This document shows, in pieces, positions 49-28,488 of a stretch of 64,000 nucleotides of DNA; position 1 is the stretch's first letter; each line of letters opens with the position of its first letter. The position numbers and the translations under genes are program-made. The stretch is taken from contig ML996694.1 of the NCBI GenBank assembly GCA_010356995.1, positions 495,224-559,223 on the forward strand. Reading direction: 5' to 3'. The DNA is from Trichodelitschia bisporula. Its lineage: Eukaryota. The notes beneath the pieces are model-generated. The model was not told the origin of the DNA. It did no database searches and saw only the letters and a list, made by a program, of their open reading frames with translations.

Positions 49-1345
49 TCAAGCAAGCCTAACGTATGCTGATGGAGCGTGTTAGTGTCCCAACATCGGC
101 GGACCAAGCGAGCACCTACTAGCATCGATCTGCTGCACCTGCGGCAGCGCCAGCCGGACCTTATTCCGATACAAAGCCGGCTGGCGTTTCTGCAGCGGAT
201 TCCCCTCCAGGTACACGGTCTGCAGCTCAGCCTTGTCGCGCAGCTGTTGCTCTACCTCCTCGAAGCTATCAAGTTTGCACGAGCTCGCCCACAGCTCTTC
301 CAGCTGGGACTGGGCTTCCAGGCCCGTGAGGTGCTCGAGGGGGTTCGCGGATATGTCCAACACGCGCAGGTTGGTGTTGCCTGACAGACCGGAGATCTCA
401 GTGAGTGCATTGTGCGAGACGTAGAGTTCTTCAAGTTGGGGGAGGGATTCGAGACCGGAAAGCTCGTGCAGCCGGTTGGATTGGATGGACAGGATTTTGA
501 GGTTGCTGAGTGTGTCCAGGCCGCTCAGGGATGTAAGCTTGTTCTTGCCCAACCACAACTTCTCAAGTGCCGTCAAAGTCTCCAGGTTTTGGATTGTGCG
601 GATGCGGTTTCCACCCAGCTCAAGGTTGGTGAGGTTGGTTAGGCCCTCAAGGTTCTCGATCACGGAAATTTTGTTTTGCACGAAATACAGGTCTGTCAGC
701 TTCTGTAGGTGATTGACCCGGCGGATGTGTTTGATCTTGTTGAAACTGAAATCCAGACTCGTCAACTCAGAGAAATCTTCCAAGCCCTTGATGGAGGAGA
801 TCAAGTTGTCGTATAAGTCAAGATCCTTCAGTGTACTCGCGAGGCTGGGTGGAAATTCAACCGCAGTGATCTGGTTCTGTCGAAGGCAAAGCCGCTGAAT
901 TGTTAGACAGGTTTACGAACGACGTAAGGAGCTAACCTCGACATGCTGAAATCGCTCCAAGCGGAGCGCGGGTATGGACTGGATCCGGCAGTGGACGAGA
1001 TCGATCTCCTGAGGCTCGCATTAGCCGATGTCATCGACTGGAGTTAAAGAGAAGCTACAGTAGTATCGTCCTCCAAATCCGCGCACAAATCTACGATCAC
1101 ATCAGCCATCCGTTGCCGTAACCACGCTCTGAGGGAAGCGCACCCTCATCTGCCTCGATCTGCTGGAGCGGCGGCGCATCGTCATCTTCGCTCTCTGGCT
1201 CACTCTCGTTCACAACCGCTCTCCGCTCAATGCGAAGCTTGCCATCCCAGCCCCGAGAATTGCGTGGTGAATGAGCGACAGTCGCCTCTGTGCCATCGGT
1301 GGTGGCGGGGAGCTGGATGTGGGGTTCGTCCGTCGGGGAAGCCAT
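49..1345 (-). CDS. SDS22: Protein phosphatase 1 regulatory subunit Sds22 (leucine-rich repeat)
   Basis: Tandem SDS22-type LRRs (LTSLDFSFNKIKHI, LELGGNRIRTIQNL, LWLGKNKL) plus LRR cap (YRNKVRLALPQVQQIDA). Exons 1345-1144, 1090-1059, 1008-937, 894-120, 68-49, ending TYVRLA*. Confidence 0.93.
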
Positions 1346-11273: not shown

Positions 11274-12144
11274 TCTCCGAAGGTCAGGCGCCTTTAATCT
11301 TTGGCATTTTTTGGTGCGGCGTTCTTGACTTCCGGCGTGAAGATTACGTCGTTAGAATGTCGTTTGTTTTTTTAACATCATTGGACTTAATATTTCCATG
11401 CTTGGATGCTTCTGAATCCGGGATCGGTGCATGATGTGTACGTGTAGATTATGCTATGCATCTCCTGAACGGAGCTTCTTAGTCTTGATTCATCTTGTCC
11501 GGCATGCGGTGCGAAGGAATTCCCACGCGTGTCAACTCGGTTTCGTTCGTCAAGCCTTACTGTTAGGAGTGTCCTTGCAGAAGCCGCTGCGGCGTTAGGC
11601 ACAGAAACTAATTCTCAGCCGGAGGTACAGACGCACACATTCATCACCTTTCTCGCAACGTGCAAAGCTGGGGAGTCTCGAACTTCCTGCTTCAACCCCA
11701 CCATGCCTTACCAGACCTTGGCTAGCTCTACTATTGATGGACATGTCGAGTTTTAGGTCTTGGTTGTTCTTATCGCTGCTTACACTCACAGTATGACAAA
11801 GTGCGACAGTATCGGGGTGGAGTGAGGAAGGTAGGGTTTCAGCCTTACGCGTCTGGTCTTGGGCTTGGCTGTAGAAGCGGATTGGCCAGCGACTGTTTCT
11901 CTCCACCATTGCCAGAACTAGTTCTAGCTCCTAGAAGATGGGAGAGACATTAGAGTAACGACGGGCGGAAATGTTGAAGCCAATCTACCAGATTTAGAGA
12001 ACGCTCTAAGACCGGAGCTACCTGTATATCGTGGACCACATAACTACCCGTAGAATACAAGCACTCCGAGGCCAAATTCACCCATTGCCCGCAGGCATAC
12101 CGGCCTCATATTCCACCCATAATCCTCATAAGTATCCCACAACC

Positions 12145-15100
12145 CTATCCCGAACTCCCAGCCGATCCCCCGCTTTTAACTTTCTTCATAACGAGGCCAA
12201 CATCTGCATCGTCACCGTCAAAGCTTTCGTCACTGCTCAGCCCATCTGGCTCCCCTTCATAATCGCCAACACCCATTCCGCGTAGACTCTCATCCACATC
12301 TTGAATGTCTACCTCGCTCATAACCGCTGAAATCGCGCCACCTGTCTCTCCTCCTTTCGTTTCGGCTACTCTCTCTTGGGCTGCTGCTTCGGCAGCTGCA
12401 GCTGCAGCCTGGCGCTGCGCGAGTCGGGCTGCGAACTGACGGCGTGCGCGCGTGGGGACTTGCAATGGAAGTGGTTTGGAGAGGGTGTCAATTGAAGACT
12501 TAGTAGCCGACTATTTAGGACGAAAATCATGTCAGCCAATATACCTGAAGGGTGTGCGGAGGTGGTAGGGGGGTCAAGCACCGAGAGAAATATGGCACAC
12601 AACCGGGAGACGAAGAGTGCAGCGATAGAGCGAGAACAATGGGGCCTCCGTTCCCAATCTTTCTATATGTGGCATGAATGGGTTGCTTTCGCTCTACGAA
12701 ATGTAGTTTCGCGCATGGGTATGCTGCTATAGCTGGACATGTAGAGAACTGAAAGACATGAGGAGGAGACCCTTGAGGTCTCGAAGAAAAATGAGGAGGT
12801 ACCATGCCACATTTACAATCCCCATATTCCTCCCCTTTACAACAGATGACATGAAAAGGAGTGGGACATAGGGTAGACAAATAAGCAGTGGACATAAGTG
12901 GAGGGGAATCAGAGGCACTCATTGACATCGTCTCCCGGCAGGGAAAAAGCATGAACACAGACTCTCGTGTTGACTGTGTGAGTAAGCGAAGGAGGTGATT
13001 ATGGATATCCCATATCAATATCTTCAAAGGAAAGTTCACCCACTTGTTCCGAGTCATCGACGGGCAAAGTCTGCCGTGGCAATTCGCCATCGTCCATCTC
13101 CTCATCCTCCTCGTCACTTGAACCTTGGCTGAATCCGCTCAAAAGGCTATTTCCGCTAAACGGATAGTTGCCGGGTGTTGATCCTCCCGTGTTCGCCAGA
13201 TCAGCACTGTCCAGGCCTAGTGATACAGTGCTCGTAAGGTTTACGAGTGGGGACGCGCCGCCAAAGCTGTGAGCTGCGTTCACTGCGTTCAATACGGCCG
13301 CGCGAGTACCGCCGTTCACATCTGGCCGTACACCGCCAAGAATTGCGTTGTCACGCTCACGCGTTTCAGCGAGTGTGTGCTCGACATAGTGAACCCAAGT
13401 CGGGCTCACTACTTTGTCGACCACAGCTTGCGATAACTGCTCGGGTGCATGCCTCTCGGTGAACTTGACGACCTCCTCGGCGATGAGCGTGATATGCCCC
13501 ATGTATCCCAGCCGCATGTTTGACTCCGCCTGTGCCTTGTCGCTAGCTTCTTGGCCCTCGACAATCCGTTCTGTGATGCGTCCAGTTTGAAAAAGATCAA
13601 TGGCCAGGGAGCGATTAAAGCCTCGGGAAAGCGCAGCGTTGAACACTTGCTGAACTACATCGTACACAACGTTATGCAGGAAGTTGTTCCAAGGGAAACG
13701 GAAGAAAAAGTCCTAGATCACTGTAAGATAGGAGTGATTGGATCAGCTCAACAACTCACCAGAATGGTTGGAACGACCCGATGTTTGACGAACATCATTT
13801 TTAGCAAATCCCCAACGACCGGCCGACCATCGATATCAATCTCGTACGGAGTGGTGACCTCCTCGACAGGCGCCTTTCCGTCATCGACATCAGATGTGGG
13901 CAATGCGGAAGAGGGTTTCTCTGGCGACAGTGAGCGTTTTCCGGCAAACAGAGGAGCCGGTCTATCGTCGGCCCGAGGAGAAAGATCGCCACTATTAGAT
14001 GGGGGAGATGTCTCTGAAGAAGAGGTATTAGGAATGGTGCTCTGAGTGAGAGCGTGTAAACTGACCAATGTCTCCAACGACCGCTGAACTTGTCTCACTC
14101 TCCGACTCCTGCATGATTGTGTCGGTATCCAGATCTACCGAACCAAGTCTTGCGGTAAGACCCGTGGACGTCGGGGAGTTGGCATTCGTGGCCAAGTCAC
14201 CTTCTAACTTTGACGAACTGACTTCATCGGGCGCCTGTGGGGCGGTACGCTTTCGCGGAGAAAGCGGAGGCTCGATAAGATCATCATCGGATTTCTCCAG
14301 TTCCCTAGGCTTGACCTTGGGAGATCTTTCCAGAGGTACCCCGACAATAGCATCCGGTTCATCGAGGTCATCTTTGATATCGTCACCAAGGACTTCAGAC
14401 GCTGTAACGTTTTCGAACTCTTCTTCGCTATTGGTTGGGAGGTCCTGGCGTTTGATTTCTTCTGGAGAATCGGCTGAAATTGACGGAGCTGATGCAAAAT
14501 GGAACCCCGAGCTGTCCACACTTGTTCCGAATTCATTGACGGGATTTTCCCTTGAAGGTCCTAGCTTTCCCTCAGCCTTTAACCGGGATCGTTCAACATC
14601 CCGTCTCTTGACTTCGTTCTCGCTGCCTCTCTCGTTAAGCAGCTGCATATTACTACAATGGAGAAGCTCGGCCATAAGTTCGCAGGTCTTGAAGCGATCG
14701 AAACCCAAAGGCTCGATCTTAGAGCCAAAGGCCACGCTAAGCTCCTTCTTTCGACTTGTCAACATGAGATGCATGAAATCCGGTACATGGTTCGCAAATT
14801 GGCGGAGCAATGTGCCAAGATATATAGGATCTGTCGACTTCGGAGTGGGACCGGTTTGGTTCTCGATGTCGTAATCGGAGTTGTTCTTGCGAATCACCTC
14901 GATTATGATACCAACACCAACCGTGAGTGGGTTCCCTCCTTGCAGCATGTCGGAGATGAGCTGCTTGACGCATTCCTCAGACACAAGTTCTCGTGTGAGT
15001 TCGTTCGGGCCGATGACGTTCGTATCGGGGGCGGTGGCGTTTGCGGAGATGGTTATGATGGCTTTGAGGAAATCTCCGGCAGATGTCTGCGTAGCGGCAC

Positions 15101-24859: not shown

Positions 24860-27064
24860 CTAGGTCCTTTCACCTCCCGGCAAGACATCCTCCATCTTAA
24901 CGTCCGTATCTTCACCAGCAGCATTTACAGCGGATGCCTCACCCGGATTCTCATACTCAATCATCTGCTGGTCAGGCATGCTGACCGGACTGCCTGAGCG
25001 GAGCTCGTCGGCGTACTCTTCTTCAGGCGGCGAGAAGGACCAGACCTTGGAGAATTAGCTCAGGACTAACATCAACAAAGCCACTACTCACCTCCATGAC
25101 AGTTCGCTGGTTCCGGCTGGCCATTATCACCGCCTTCTCTTCCTCAAACACCACTCTCCACACCTGATCGGCAGGTTGGCTCAGTTCGCGGACTAGGTTG
25201 CCCTTCTTTAAATCCCACACCTTCACACGACCGTCGCTGCCGCCACTAACGATGCGAGTGTCGTCAAATTGCAGGCTAGTCACGCTGTTGTCGTGAGCCG
25301 CAAGGCGATGAATGGCTTGGTAGTCGGTCAAAGACCAAACGCGGACCGATCCGTCTGAGCCGCCGGTTACAAGGATATCGCCGCGCATCTGAAGTTGTCC
25401 CACCAGCGATGTGTGGCCCTGGAGCACGGCCAGGCAACGACTTCTCTGTTTAGTAACGCACTCAAGAAAGTCGGCGGCAATCACTCACCCATCTGTAGGA
25501 TCCCACACCCTCACACTGGTGTCCAAGCTCCCAGTGGCGATCTTCTTGCCATCGAAAGCCACTGCGTAAATCTGGCTGAAGTGGCCGCTGAGCGTCCGCA
25601 GGCATCTCCCCTCGGATATGCTCCAGATGCGAGCGAAAGTGTCGTAGCTGCCGGAGACGATAAGATCTCCGTGGATCTCCAGACAGCGTACGCTAGCAAT
25701 GTGCCCGACTAGGACATGTTTGCAGATACCCTTTTGTATATCCCAAATCCGAAGTGTGGTATCGCGCGAACCAGAAACTGCCGTCGTCGCATCCGCCATT
25801 TTCAGGCACCGCACCGTTGACGTGTGTCCGCGCAGATTATGGACGCTCCTCCTGCGAAGGCGTCAATACGAGCACATCTGGCAATCAAATCTCTTACCCA
25901 GTTGCCATATTCCATACTCTGACATCTCTATCACAACCCCCGCTAACCAAGATGTCGTCCCACGGAACCATGGCCCAAACCCCCATGGCATGGCCCTGAA
26001 GTGTCTTTTGGTGGCTTCCTTCCGTATCGAATACGTGGATTTTAGCGTTGTCAAGCGCGACCACAATGTACTTGTCGGTAAGATGAAGGCTGGTGACCAC
26101 GCCCTGATCTGGTGTGATCTGCCGCTGGTCCATTTTGCCGCCAATGCGCCAGGCCGTCTCAACCATGTACCGCTGCTTGAAGTGCGACCGATACGACATG
26201 GCGGGTGGTCGTCTGCGTCCTTGCCGGGCGTTTCTACCACGATCCAAGCTCTGCGTCCGCAAATCTGAAGCGCCGCCCACACCTGGCATCGAGGTATGGC
26301 GGAAGGTGAAGCTGGAAGAGAATATGGGGTTTGGGTGGGGTGATGAGCTGGGCGTCTGCACAGCCCCAGACGAATGGGGCGGAGTGCGTTGCTCGACAGG
26401 CAGTCTGCGATATGAGTGCTTTTCGCAAAGCGCTTTCCACGCCATGTCGTCACTAACAAGCTCGCGCCATCTTCTAGACACTTGGGACGAACGCGCGAGG
26501 GTTTGGGGATCGTCAATGAATGTGAGGACCTGGCAAGCATGTTAGCTAGCGTCAAGTTTATAAGCATGGCGTACTCACTCGAAGACACAGCTCATCCGGA
26601 AGAGACATAAACGGGTCCTTCTTCAGTCGCGGGCTCACAAAGTCCTGTACGAAAGCCAGTTGTTGGCTGGTACACATATTGAGCAGCTCTGCAAGACACC
26701 GCTGTTTCTCTGCATCGTTCATCACAGCGAAGCGCGCCCTCATATCGCGCGCATTGTCGTCCTCATGTTCGGCAGCGGTGCTCCAGTCCGGCACGCGCTG
26801 CATCGGTGTAGGACTCGGGGCTGGAGTGGGTGGTGATGCAGGAGCCGAAGGGAGGGTATTGTGGGGGATTGTTGGAGACATTGGGCTACGCGGAGTATGG
26901 ATTGGGCGAGCTTGTGGCCGTATCAGTGGCGCTTTTCGCTTGGGCAGCGACGAGGAGGACGCGAAGATGGATGCGGGAGGAGGCAGTTGTTCAAAGTCGT
27001 CGGCTAGATCCACAGATGTGCCTACTCTTCCTTCCTCAATATTGTCGAACATGCCGTCATCCAT
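24860..27064 (-). CDS. F-box/WD40 SCF substrate receptor (Fbw7/Cdc4-like)
   Basis: F-box (KDPFMSLPDELCLR...VSRRWRELVSDD) and WD40 repeats (LVSGGCDRDVRVW, LRGHTSTVRCL, VSGSRDTTLRIWD, LQGHTSLVGQLQ); 4 introns. Start at 27064 is inferred. Confidence 0.9.
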
Positions 27065-28488
27065 GATAGGGCCGGTTTTGGGGGATCGCAGATGGAATCG
27101 CAGGCCCAGGTTGAAGGAGCAGTACGGCTGGCCGGCGGGTCGGACGATGGGTCGGACGTGTCCACGTTTAACACAACGACGAGAACGGGCAGAACAGCCA
27201 GTAAGAGGCGGACGGCGCTGCTGCTGGACAATGCAGATTTAGCAGGTGTGTGCAAAGGCGATGCGAATAGCGGCGACGAGAGGAGACGATGGGGATGTGG
27301 AGCGCAAGTGTTTCAGGATGCTTGGTGCCAGCGGGTAGGGGAATGAGCCGCAAAGCAAGACAAGCTTGCCGGTCGTGACGAGGATGTCGTCCTTCTTCAC
27401 TCGACCAAAGACATCCGGAGTGAGCGAAGTAGATGGTGTGTGTGGTTCCTGGGGGGGAGTCTGTCACTGAAGGAATCGAGGAGGCTGGCTGGCGCTTGAA
27501 GCGTCGTTCGGTTGATGATGATTTTGCCGGGGAGTCGGGGAGAGACTGGGGGTAGGGGGGGTTGGCGTGCGATGTGGGAGGAGATGGTGGTAGGTAGGAA
27601 AGGTGGGTGTGCGAGAAGAGGGAGGCAAAGGGGAGACCTCTTCGGCCTCAGGCTTTAGGAGGGTGGGGAATGAATGAGAGAGGATGAGAGTTTGGGAGGG
27701 GGTGGGGTGTGTGGTTTACGTGGGTGGATCAGTGGGATGCTGTCAGATAGTACGTATTGAACGGTATGGGAGGAAGGTTTGGCTGGTCTGGCGGTTGCAC
27801 TGCTGGGGAGGCGGGAGGTTCCAGCGTCGCGAGCGTTGCGAGTAGTGTGCACGCAGCAGACGCAGCAGTCAACGTGTAGAGTGGCCACCAGTAGTGGGGG
27901 GGGGGGGTGGGTGGATATGGTGGGCATAAGGTGGGTCATTTTCTCGGTGGGGAAGAGAGAGTGAGCCTTGAAGGGCGGAAGTGCGCGCTGTTACAGTACT
28001 TTACTTTGGAGCGAGAGTGGAGATACCGAAGACCCAGGCCCTGCAAAGCAAAACGCAAACTTCAACAAGACCTGCCACTGTTTAACCACTACACTATGAA
28101 GAGCGCGCATCCTTTGACCTAAAATCTCCTTGTCTTTATCCTTCTCTCACCTTACTGCGGATGTACGTACGGTATACCTGGGCTTGCCCCTCTGGCTCTC
28201 TCTTATGCTTCAACTTGAGTGTATACGGATGTAGATGCAGCAAACAACCCCAACTGGACGACCGCCTTCATCCGCCACCCTTACTCGTACTGTTGCTCAA
28301 ATTCGTAGCATCGACGTCCTTCCCTCCCTCACCTCTTACTATAGTAGGGTCGGGGCCCCTTGAACCGAATCAAAAATGACATCGTTCGCAACCACCCACC
28401 TTATGTACCCCAACTGAAATTGGACCTCGAGAATGCTGTGGCTGCTGCCAGAAGCGTACAGAGATATGATGCGTACGAGCAATAACAT

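Follow-up and report, generated by a model that had tools for sequence, protein, structure and literature searches.

Predicted RNA structure in the optional terminal intron of a SAPS-domain gene from Trichodelitschia bisporula, beside a conserved switch between two protein tails

Can RNA structure inside an unusually long intron influence which end a fungal protein receives? This question is raised by positions 12511-13043 of a 64,000-nucleotide (nt) stretch of Trichodelitschia bisporula DNA (GenBank assembly GCA_010356995.1, contig ML996694.1, positions 495,224 to 559,223; hereafter the window, whose numbering is used throughout), which lie at the 3' end of a minus-strand gene for a Sit4/PP6 regulator. 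An initial annotation of the window had proposed that this intron holds a structured RNA element made of long-range stems (P1a, P1b, P2, and P3) and a pseudoknot or switch. Here, we report that the intron is genuine but optional, that its donor separates two conserved protein tails, and that folding calculations predict an unusual degree of structure in the RNA of the transcribed strand. Few fungal alternative-splicing events are known to be conserved and to yield two functional proteins; in distant ascomycetes, this PP6/Sit4 regulator has kept its two tails, the donor between them, and the long intron, although most database models give only one form. The locus is a defined case of how filamentous fungi, whose introns are normally about 50 nt long, handle an intron of 350-550 nt with competing donors, and a testable case for whether RNA structure sets the splicing outcome.

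Results

The terminal intron of the SAPS-domain gene is optional

Three exon open reading frames (ORFs) of the minus-strand gene matched PF04499 (SAPS) with E values of 3e-53, 1e-73, and 6e-16 (cut-off, 25.6 bits) and jointly span profile positions 1-451, which is the whole profile. Judged from these matches, the gene is a SAPS-domain gene, that is, one for a Sit4/PP6 regulatory subunit, and 12511-13043 is its last intron, as had been claimed. ORF 12999..13712 was 100% identical to the end of the database protein P0001 (918 amino acids [aa]; source name Trichodelitschia bisporula). This database model of the SAPS gene represents the short isoform only.

The RNA evidence consisted of assembled contigs from two runs (X1 and X2) of one sample, in which splice forms are visible but ratios, regulation, and RNA ends are not. 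The contigs were treated as cDNA- or RNA-derived because the small introns of the SAPS gene and of its neighbors are skipped in them. A joint at 12510/13044, present in both X1 and X2, removes 533 nt with CT..AC bounds on the plus strand, corresponding to GT..AG on the minus strand. X1 record 3 runs continuously over 12481-13073 and keeps the whole 533-nt intron. The third form is a joint at 12510/12582, found in X2 only, which removes 71 nt with the same plus-strand CT..AC bounds (minus-strand GT..AG). X1 record 2 spans 11978-12510, with the contig end near 11978. The 533- and 71-nt GT..AG joints and the unbroken contig place the element among alternatively used spliceosomal introns: the terminal intron at 12511-13043 is genuine, and its removal is optional. 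The alternative processing proposed in the initial annotation thus exists as spliced, fully retained, and internal-donor forms, and the intron is indeed about ten times the typical length, at 533 nt against 46-55 nt for the five small introns in the X1 and X2 contigs. Across the gene's three small introns, bin depth equaled the exon depth multiplied by the exonic fraction, leaving no retained copies; retention in the SAPS gene is therefore specific to the 533-nt intron.

In both contig sets, k-mer depth was 4-5 times lower 3' of 13044 (spliced joint, retained intron, and last exon) than in the upstream exons. This drop, over 11978-13073, might be due to transcripts with ends within the intron or to biased coverage.

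The donor separates two conserved protein tails

The donor CAA|GTGGGT lies in phase 0, directly after a Gln codon. In unspliced or internally spliced RNA, translation continues through 14 extra codons, giving the tail ...Q-VGELSFEDIDMGYP* with the stop TAA at 12999-13001, and the 71-nt internal intron falls in the 3' untranslated region (3'UTR) of this short-form mRNA. Full 533-nt splicing adds a 121-aa tail from the last exon (12510-12145), SATKSS...PLQVPTRARRQFAARLAQRQ...GSSG, which includes RARRQFAARLAQRQ. Of the 120 best homologues, the short tail closes 83 and RARRQ[FL] is found in 32, with no protein showing the two together and 5 ending in some other way. Both forms are annotated in some species, for example, in models with 'variant' in the name. 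Residues 10-44 of the last exon aligned to long-form tails (P0113, E 3e-11; P0040, E 1e-6). A search of the last exon alone against longer proteins gave no match among 1610 candidates; this null result was ascribed to a word-index limit and set aside because the pairwise alignments do find the motif. These results show that the donor CAA|GTGGGT is the isoform switch point between the short and the long tail.

Both isoforms are already in the sequence databases, without comment. A literature search found no published link of SAPS or Sit4-associated proteins with alternative splicing, fungi included, and no paper describing a SAPS C-terminal isoform switch. The present analysis draws attention to two conserved protein tails in PP6 signaling.

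The initial annotation treated the intron as an RNA element and did not mention its main biology, namely, that its first 45 nt encode a widely conserved alternative C terminus and that orthologues as a rule have a long intron at this site. Two of the database proteins carry irregular records: P0003 is a SAPS protein with the source name 'NADPH-dependent diflavin oxidoreductase 1', and P0106 (1264 aa) has an unrelated C-terminal sequence and looks like a fusion of a gene model with a neighboring gene.

The switch and the long intron recur in orthologues

The orthologue set comprised 80 loci from a scan of metagenome contigs, the nearest orthologues being at most 70% identical in protein. Both coding ends were seen in 37 of the 80 loci, every one of them with the CAA|GTGGGT donor, and in 34 of these 37 the two ends lie 402-620 nt apart. 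We delimited 22 non-redundant orthologous introns of 353-553 nt, in which 15-30 nt separate a CTRAY branch site from the acceptor. The remaining three of the 37 loci (L013, L031, and L032) are cDNA-like contigs in which internal donors are joined to the same acceptor with GT..AG bounds. L031 and L032 correspond to L028 minus intron positions 330-485 (GT..AG bounds), and in L013 the splice runs from the conserved block ...CGCGCTTG|GTGCGT (~position 103) to the usual acceptor. Competing donors to one acceptor are therefore recurrent in this intron. Since the tails, the donor, and an intron of 353-553 nt recur in orthologues from many ascomycete lineages, the switch must be old, and the great length of the intron is an ancestral trait of this site that is not confined to the present genome. 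The isoform switch at the SAPS terminal intron is thus real and ancient.

Stems in the intron and its predicted folding

All complementary segments listed in the initial annotation were found at their positions, in the sequence and with a repeat finder. The arms of P1a are 11/11 complementary (I7; coordinates in Table 1), and those of P1b (GAGTGC 12615-12620 and GCACTC 12915-12920) are 6/6 complementary. P2 pairs 10/10 between 12667-12676 and 12803-12812 (inside I2), with an eleventh pair that is G-U on the sense RNA; P3 has 14-nt arms that are 86% complementary (I4), and the GAGACC/GGTCTC hairpin was read directly in the sequence. A perfect inverted repeat of at least 11 nt arose in 2.8% of 2000 dinucleotide shuffles of the 533 nt, and an 11-mer together with a second repeat of at least 10 nt in 0.15% of them, which is close to the chance estimate made in the initial annotation for the 11-mer and the 10-mer.

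Other 533-nt tiles of the window with 11-nt plus at least 10-nt perfect inverted repeats start at 25936, 37773, and 60250. Within the intron, a direct repeat CCUCCUCAU (plus strand ATGAGGAGG, 12758-12766 and 12791-12799; D5) flanks the GAGACC hairpin on both sides, and CAUGUC occurs three times (repeat families D1, D2, and D5).

The sense (minus) strand of the intron folded to -153.6 kcal/mol (z = -3.42), with none of 100 shuffles as stable, as against z = -0.40 for the plus strand, where 32 of 100 shuffles were as stable. The control consisted of 40 window tiles on alternating strands with 25 shuffles each. Their mean z was -0.01 (sd, 1.27; minimum, -2.94); none reached -3.42, and the intron lies about 2.7 background standard deviations out. 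Four control tiles had z values of -2.5 to -2.9, at 27501 (-), 59501 (-), 13101 (+), and 45101 (+). The comparison with shuffled sequence recommended in the initial annotation hence found the sense strand more stable than chance, and the asymmetry between the strands therefore favors an RNA-level property over a DNA palindrome. These calculations predict that the intron RNA is unusually structured on the transcribed strand.

The pairing ensemble was computed on the intron with 60 nt on each side, using a folding model in which pseudoknots cannot be scored. P1a, P2, and the GAGACC hairpin had pair probabilities of 0.85-1.0; these three elements of the earlier proposal are thus predicted to form on the sense RNA with a probability of about 1. 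By contrast, P1b and P3 had a pair probability of 0.0, in P3 at all 14 positions, and forcing them cost +4.6 and +8.0 kcal/mol, respectively, so that the proposed P2/P3 pseudoknot or switch found no support. Blocking P1a cost 18.2 kcal/mol, P2 12.9 kcal/mol, and both 31.1 kcal/mol, and the duplex energies were -21.6 kcal/mol for P1a and -16.4 kcal/mol for P2. The predicted structure is a rod in which P1a and further pairs (intron positions 106-140 with 389-441) enclose a domain closed by P2 and bearing two hairpins. The Rfam 15 covariance models gave no match to 12511-13043 at E values up to 10, which also speaks against the ligand-sensing element once suggested here. The sole match between 11500 and 14000 was SrbA at 13676-13704 (E 2.6), which was taken as chance.

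Splice signals and short-tail codons

In the predicted fold, pairing joins the candidate branch site to the acceptor G and the start of the exon (12504-12511), at a probability of ~0.77 (intron positions 507-513 with 533-539). This local branch-site/acceptor hairpin (12504-12538) is independent of P1 and P2 and could lower the use of the acceptor by either donor. Occlusion of the branch site by the long stems was considered and dropped, its unpaired probability being 0.08 and the shuffle mean 0.12; the measure is uninformative on the long stems because the local acceptor hairpin was held fixed in the shuffles.

Regular pairing of the short-tail codons with the distal intron was likewise rejected: z was -1.68 for the window intron and -0.26 on average over 23 introns, and only L009 and L010 were significant (z -3.0 and -2.6; 200 shuffles). 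L010:3098-3572 (and also L009) has a 17-bp helix that pairs intron positions 19-35 with 363-379 over the short-tail codons (E-D-V-E-M-D). Its distal arm lies ~76 nt upstream of the branch site, the helix is stronger than at least 99% of 200 shuffles, and in geometry the L010/L009 helix comes close to a yeast zipper stem.

Stability of the orthologous introns

Perfect long stems were also found in orthologues, with 15 bp in L026, 14 bp in L015, 12 bp in L028, and 11 bp in L029. The mean sense z of the 22 orthologous introns was -0.88, and 6 of the 22 had z <= -2 compared with 4 of the 40 control tiles (Fisher p 0.08). The two z distributions differed with a one-sided Mann-Whitney p of 0.019, for sequences that are non-independent and come from different genomes. 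Stability was sense-specific in L029 (-3.68 on the sense strand and -0.38 on the antisense strand), L015 (-2.83 and -0.86), and L028 (-2.17 and -0.68), but not in L026 (-5.38 vs. -5.98). The 15-bp perfect central stem of L026 (L026:4901-5051) has microsatellite-like arms, CACCCATCATCATCA and TGATGATGATGGGTG. Rfam gave nothing for the introns of seven orthologous loci.

A covarying domain in the Pleosporales-type group

One group of orthologues has the tail QVGE[IV]SFDDADMDYR; we call it Pleosporales-type after named Pleosporales proteins with the same ending, a label inferred from that ending and not from contig taxonomy. Its introns share blocks in L015:4682-5108, L018:4688-5155, L028:4691-5175, L029:4691-5155, L016:4685-5216, L026:4697-5189, L006:3689-4054, and L014:757-1123. 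One block is an invariant TTGGTGCGTTT, which serves as an internal donor in the cDNA-like L013. Another, the central domain CATACA...GGTGTATGATACATGTAGTAATACGCATCG, is closed by a stem with compensatory changes and belongs to no Rfam family. The main text of PMC5640933 (15 fungal RNA motifs) makes no mention of this domain, and SIT4, SAPS, and phosphatase are absent from it as well.

In an alignment of eight sequences with four helices, 87.1% of the cells were paired, and both sides had changed in 8 pairs, of which 5 belong to the central stem. The covariation score was 0.263 vs. 0.195 for shuffled alignments (1 of 500 as high) and 0.05-0.08 for slid ones. In L028, the GTATGC donor that is used in L031 and L032 falls within the 3' arm of the central stem. 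In L015 and L018, the central stem is kept without a GT at the L028 donor position; the stem is therefore more than a mask for this site. A profile of the central domain found the further loci L003, L004, L006, and L014. The introns of this inferred group show covarying structure beside donors that compete. Homology of the window intron to this other lineage's domain was rejected, the nhmmer profile giving only E 5.1 on the wrong strand.

Table 1. Positions of the splice, coding, and predicted structural features of the SAPS terminal intron
Feature	Window position	Intron position	Strand	Details
Terminal intron, full form, 533 nt	12511..13043		-	Donor GTGGGT 13043-13038; acceptor AATAG ending 12511; RNA contigs
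Internal intron, 71 nt	12511..12581		-	Donor GTGCTT 12581-12576; same acceptor; X2 joint
Candidate branch site CUGAC	12531..12535		-	21 nt upstream of acceptor AG; CTRAY match at -25 from acceptor
Alternative coding end in intron, 14 codons VGELSFEDIDMGYP + TAA	12999..13043		-	ORF; identical to P0001 end
Last exon, coding part, 121-aa long tail	12145..12510		-	ORF; stop 12145-12147
P1a 5' arm CCGGGAGACGA (predicted)	12928..12938	106-116	-	Pair probabilities 0.91-1.0
P1a 3' arm UCGUCUCCCGG (predicted)	12603..12613	431-441	-	Ends 22 nt upstream of internal donor
P2 5' arm AUGUGGCAUGG (predicted)	12802..12812	232-242	-	10/10 + one G-U; pair probabilities 0.85-1.0
P2 3' arm UCAUGCCACAU (predicted)	12667..12677	367-377	-	Repeat finder, ensemble
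GAGACC/GGUCUC hairpin, inside P2 domain (predicted)	12766..12782		-	Pair probabilities 0.99-1.0
P3, not predicted to form	12626..12696 (arms 12626-12639 / 12683-12696)		-	Pair probability 0.0

Discussion

It is likely that this intron holds structure near a real isoform switch. The explanation that we favor, tentatively and at a little under an even chance, is that the stems tune donor competition at the SAPS terminal intron. P1a would close a 314-nt loop in which P2 closes a 124-nt sub-domain with two hairpins, forming a stable autonomous domain, and the resulting compaction, with 336 of the 533 nt looped out, would alter the geometry of a competition between the weak donor lying 533 nt away from the acceptor, the internal donor close to it (71 nt, a normal intron size here), and retention. 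Donor competition shaped in this way by the stems would set the long:short isoform ratio. Alternatively, the domain may act by binding a factor. P3, P1b, the pseudoknot, and ligand sensing are outside this model.

A number of our results weigh against tuning by the stems, and most of them would be expected if the alternative splicing is real and the stems are fortuitous or neutral, for example, template-switching inverted repeats in a long, weakly constrained intron. Beyond the first ~45 coding nt, the window intron matched none of the 80 orthologous loci by blastn, and neither blastn nor an nhmmer profile detected in them a counterpart of P1-P3, whose conservation the initial annotation had made a test of its proposal. 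In 16 of the 22 orthologous introns, folding is no more stable than expected by chance, and strong structure is therefore not needed for the switch. Within the window, an 11-mer and a 10-mer occur together in 4 of 478 overlapping 533-nt tiles, the intron included, which leaves three tiles elsewhere, and 4 of the 40 control tiles reach z <= -2.5. The folded donor-to-branch distance, taken as graph distance in the minimum free energy structure, was 29, against 24.4 +/- 13.2 in 60 shuffles, 73% of which were as short, and no trend in this distance was seen among the 22 orthologous introns; a simple role in bringing the intron ends together is therefore not demonstrated. When P1a or P2 was blocked in silico, none of the splice signals (the two donors, the branch site, and the acceptor) changed in predicted accessibility, so their masking by these stems was rejected; the stems, if acting, would loop out sequence or serve as a protein platform. 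The covariation in the Pleosporales-type introns comes from eight sequences, and the test is inflated because the helices were derived from the sequences tested. Nevertheless, fortuitous stems do not readily account for stability that is sense-specific (-3.42 vs. -0.40), which is unexpected for DNA-level palindromes, nor for a z value that none of the 40 control tiles matched. Moreover, unrelated lineages have independently gained long sense-specific stems in the same intron, in one group with compensatory changes. On balance, we regard fortuitous stems as a substantial but doubtful possibility.

The other explanations assign the structure a different role. The P1/P2 domain might act in the mature short-form mRNA as part of a ~1-kb 3'UTR that controls stability, sensitivity to nonsense-mediated decay (NMD), localization, or translation: the retained and the 71-nt-spliced forms both carry the whole domain downstream of the stop at 12999, and the domain is predicted to be autonomous and not to touch the splice signals. 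The short-form mRNA of L013 (inferred Pleosporales) has lost most of its intron through the donor at ~position 103, so that such a role would not be general, and we rate it as quite improbable. That P2 and P3 form a mutually exclusive or pseudoknotted switch responding to a ligand, a protein, or temperature would be in keeping with the location of one P2 arm inside the P3 loop, and fungal thiamine pyrophosphate (TPP) riboswitches are described as controlling alternative 5' splice sites (PMC3597705). However, P3 is predicted to have no probability of forming and a cost of +8.0 kcal/mol when forced, albeit in a model blind to pseudoknots; no Rfam family was found at E values up to 10, and neither a conserved unpaired core nor sequence conservation was found (80 loci, nhmmer). 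A sensing switch would accordingly have to be counted among the very improbable readings. Much the same small chance may be given to an embedded element, that is, an intronic small nucleolar RNA (snoRNA), the precursor of a small RNA, or the decayed remains of an inverted-repeat transposon. It is common for long fungal introns to contain snoRNAs, and the perfect 11-nt terminal arms around 314 nt would suit an inserted element, but neither the window intron nor those of the seven orthologous loci matched Rfam, no second copy exists within the 64-kb window, no target-site duplication is visible beside the P1a arms, and the stability is strand-specific.

The model of stem-tuned donor competition can be extended to a broader proposal, which we consider unlikely: across Pezizomycotina, lineage-specific but functionally equivalent intronic helices would gate the choice between the two conserved C termini of the PP6/Sit4 regulator. 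These helices would be P1a/P2 in the window intron, the covarying domain in the inferred Pleosporales, and the 17-bp helix in L009 and L010. If this were true, the helices would bias the invariant GTGGGT donor against the internal donors, and the isoform ratio could respond to temperature, helicase activity, or TOR-linked signals.

Comparison with known systems

Among described systems, the zipper stems of long Saccharomyces cerevisiae introns (RPS17B type; PMC12350175, PMC2536676) resemble the stems reported here in that long-range helices loop out the middle of the intron, and both kinds of stem are predicted to be stable and show little sequence conservation from one species to another. P1a has 11 bp, and 105 nt separate it from the donor and ~70 nt from the CUGAC branch site. 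However, the total linkers in the yeast definition are 42-85 nt (PMC12350175), and P1a is not a zipper stem by this published definition because its linkers sum to ~175 nt. The idea of a zipper stem was also rejected on the folded donor-branch distance, which was not below that of shuffles in the window intron or the 22 orthologues. As they are described, zipper stems aid constitutive splicing, whereas the intron studied here is alternative and switches the protein tail. Structure is also reported to be enriched around cryptic splice sites in yeast introns (PMC12350175), and the L028-type orthologue bears a likeness to this arrangement.

The fungal TPP-riboswitch control described in PMC3597705 likewise involves competing 5' splice sites, one acceptor, and intronic pairing between them. 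The present intron differs from it in having no aptamer, Rfam match, or conserved ligand core, and the gene has no metabolite link. The SKI7/HBS1 (PMC3597508) and PTC7 (PMC6506691) systems, as reported, share with the SAPS gene a splicing choice that is conserved across distant ascomycetes and yields two protein forms, with both coding versions under selection. By contrast with these systems, the switch reported here belongs to a different family (SAPS/PP6 regulator), lies at the extreme C terminus, and operates through competing donors and retention in an intron of 350-550 nt.

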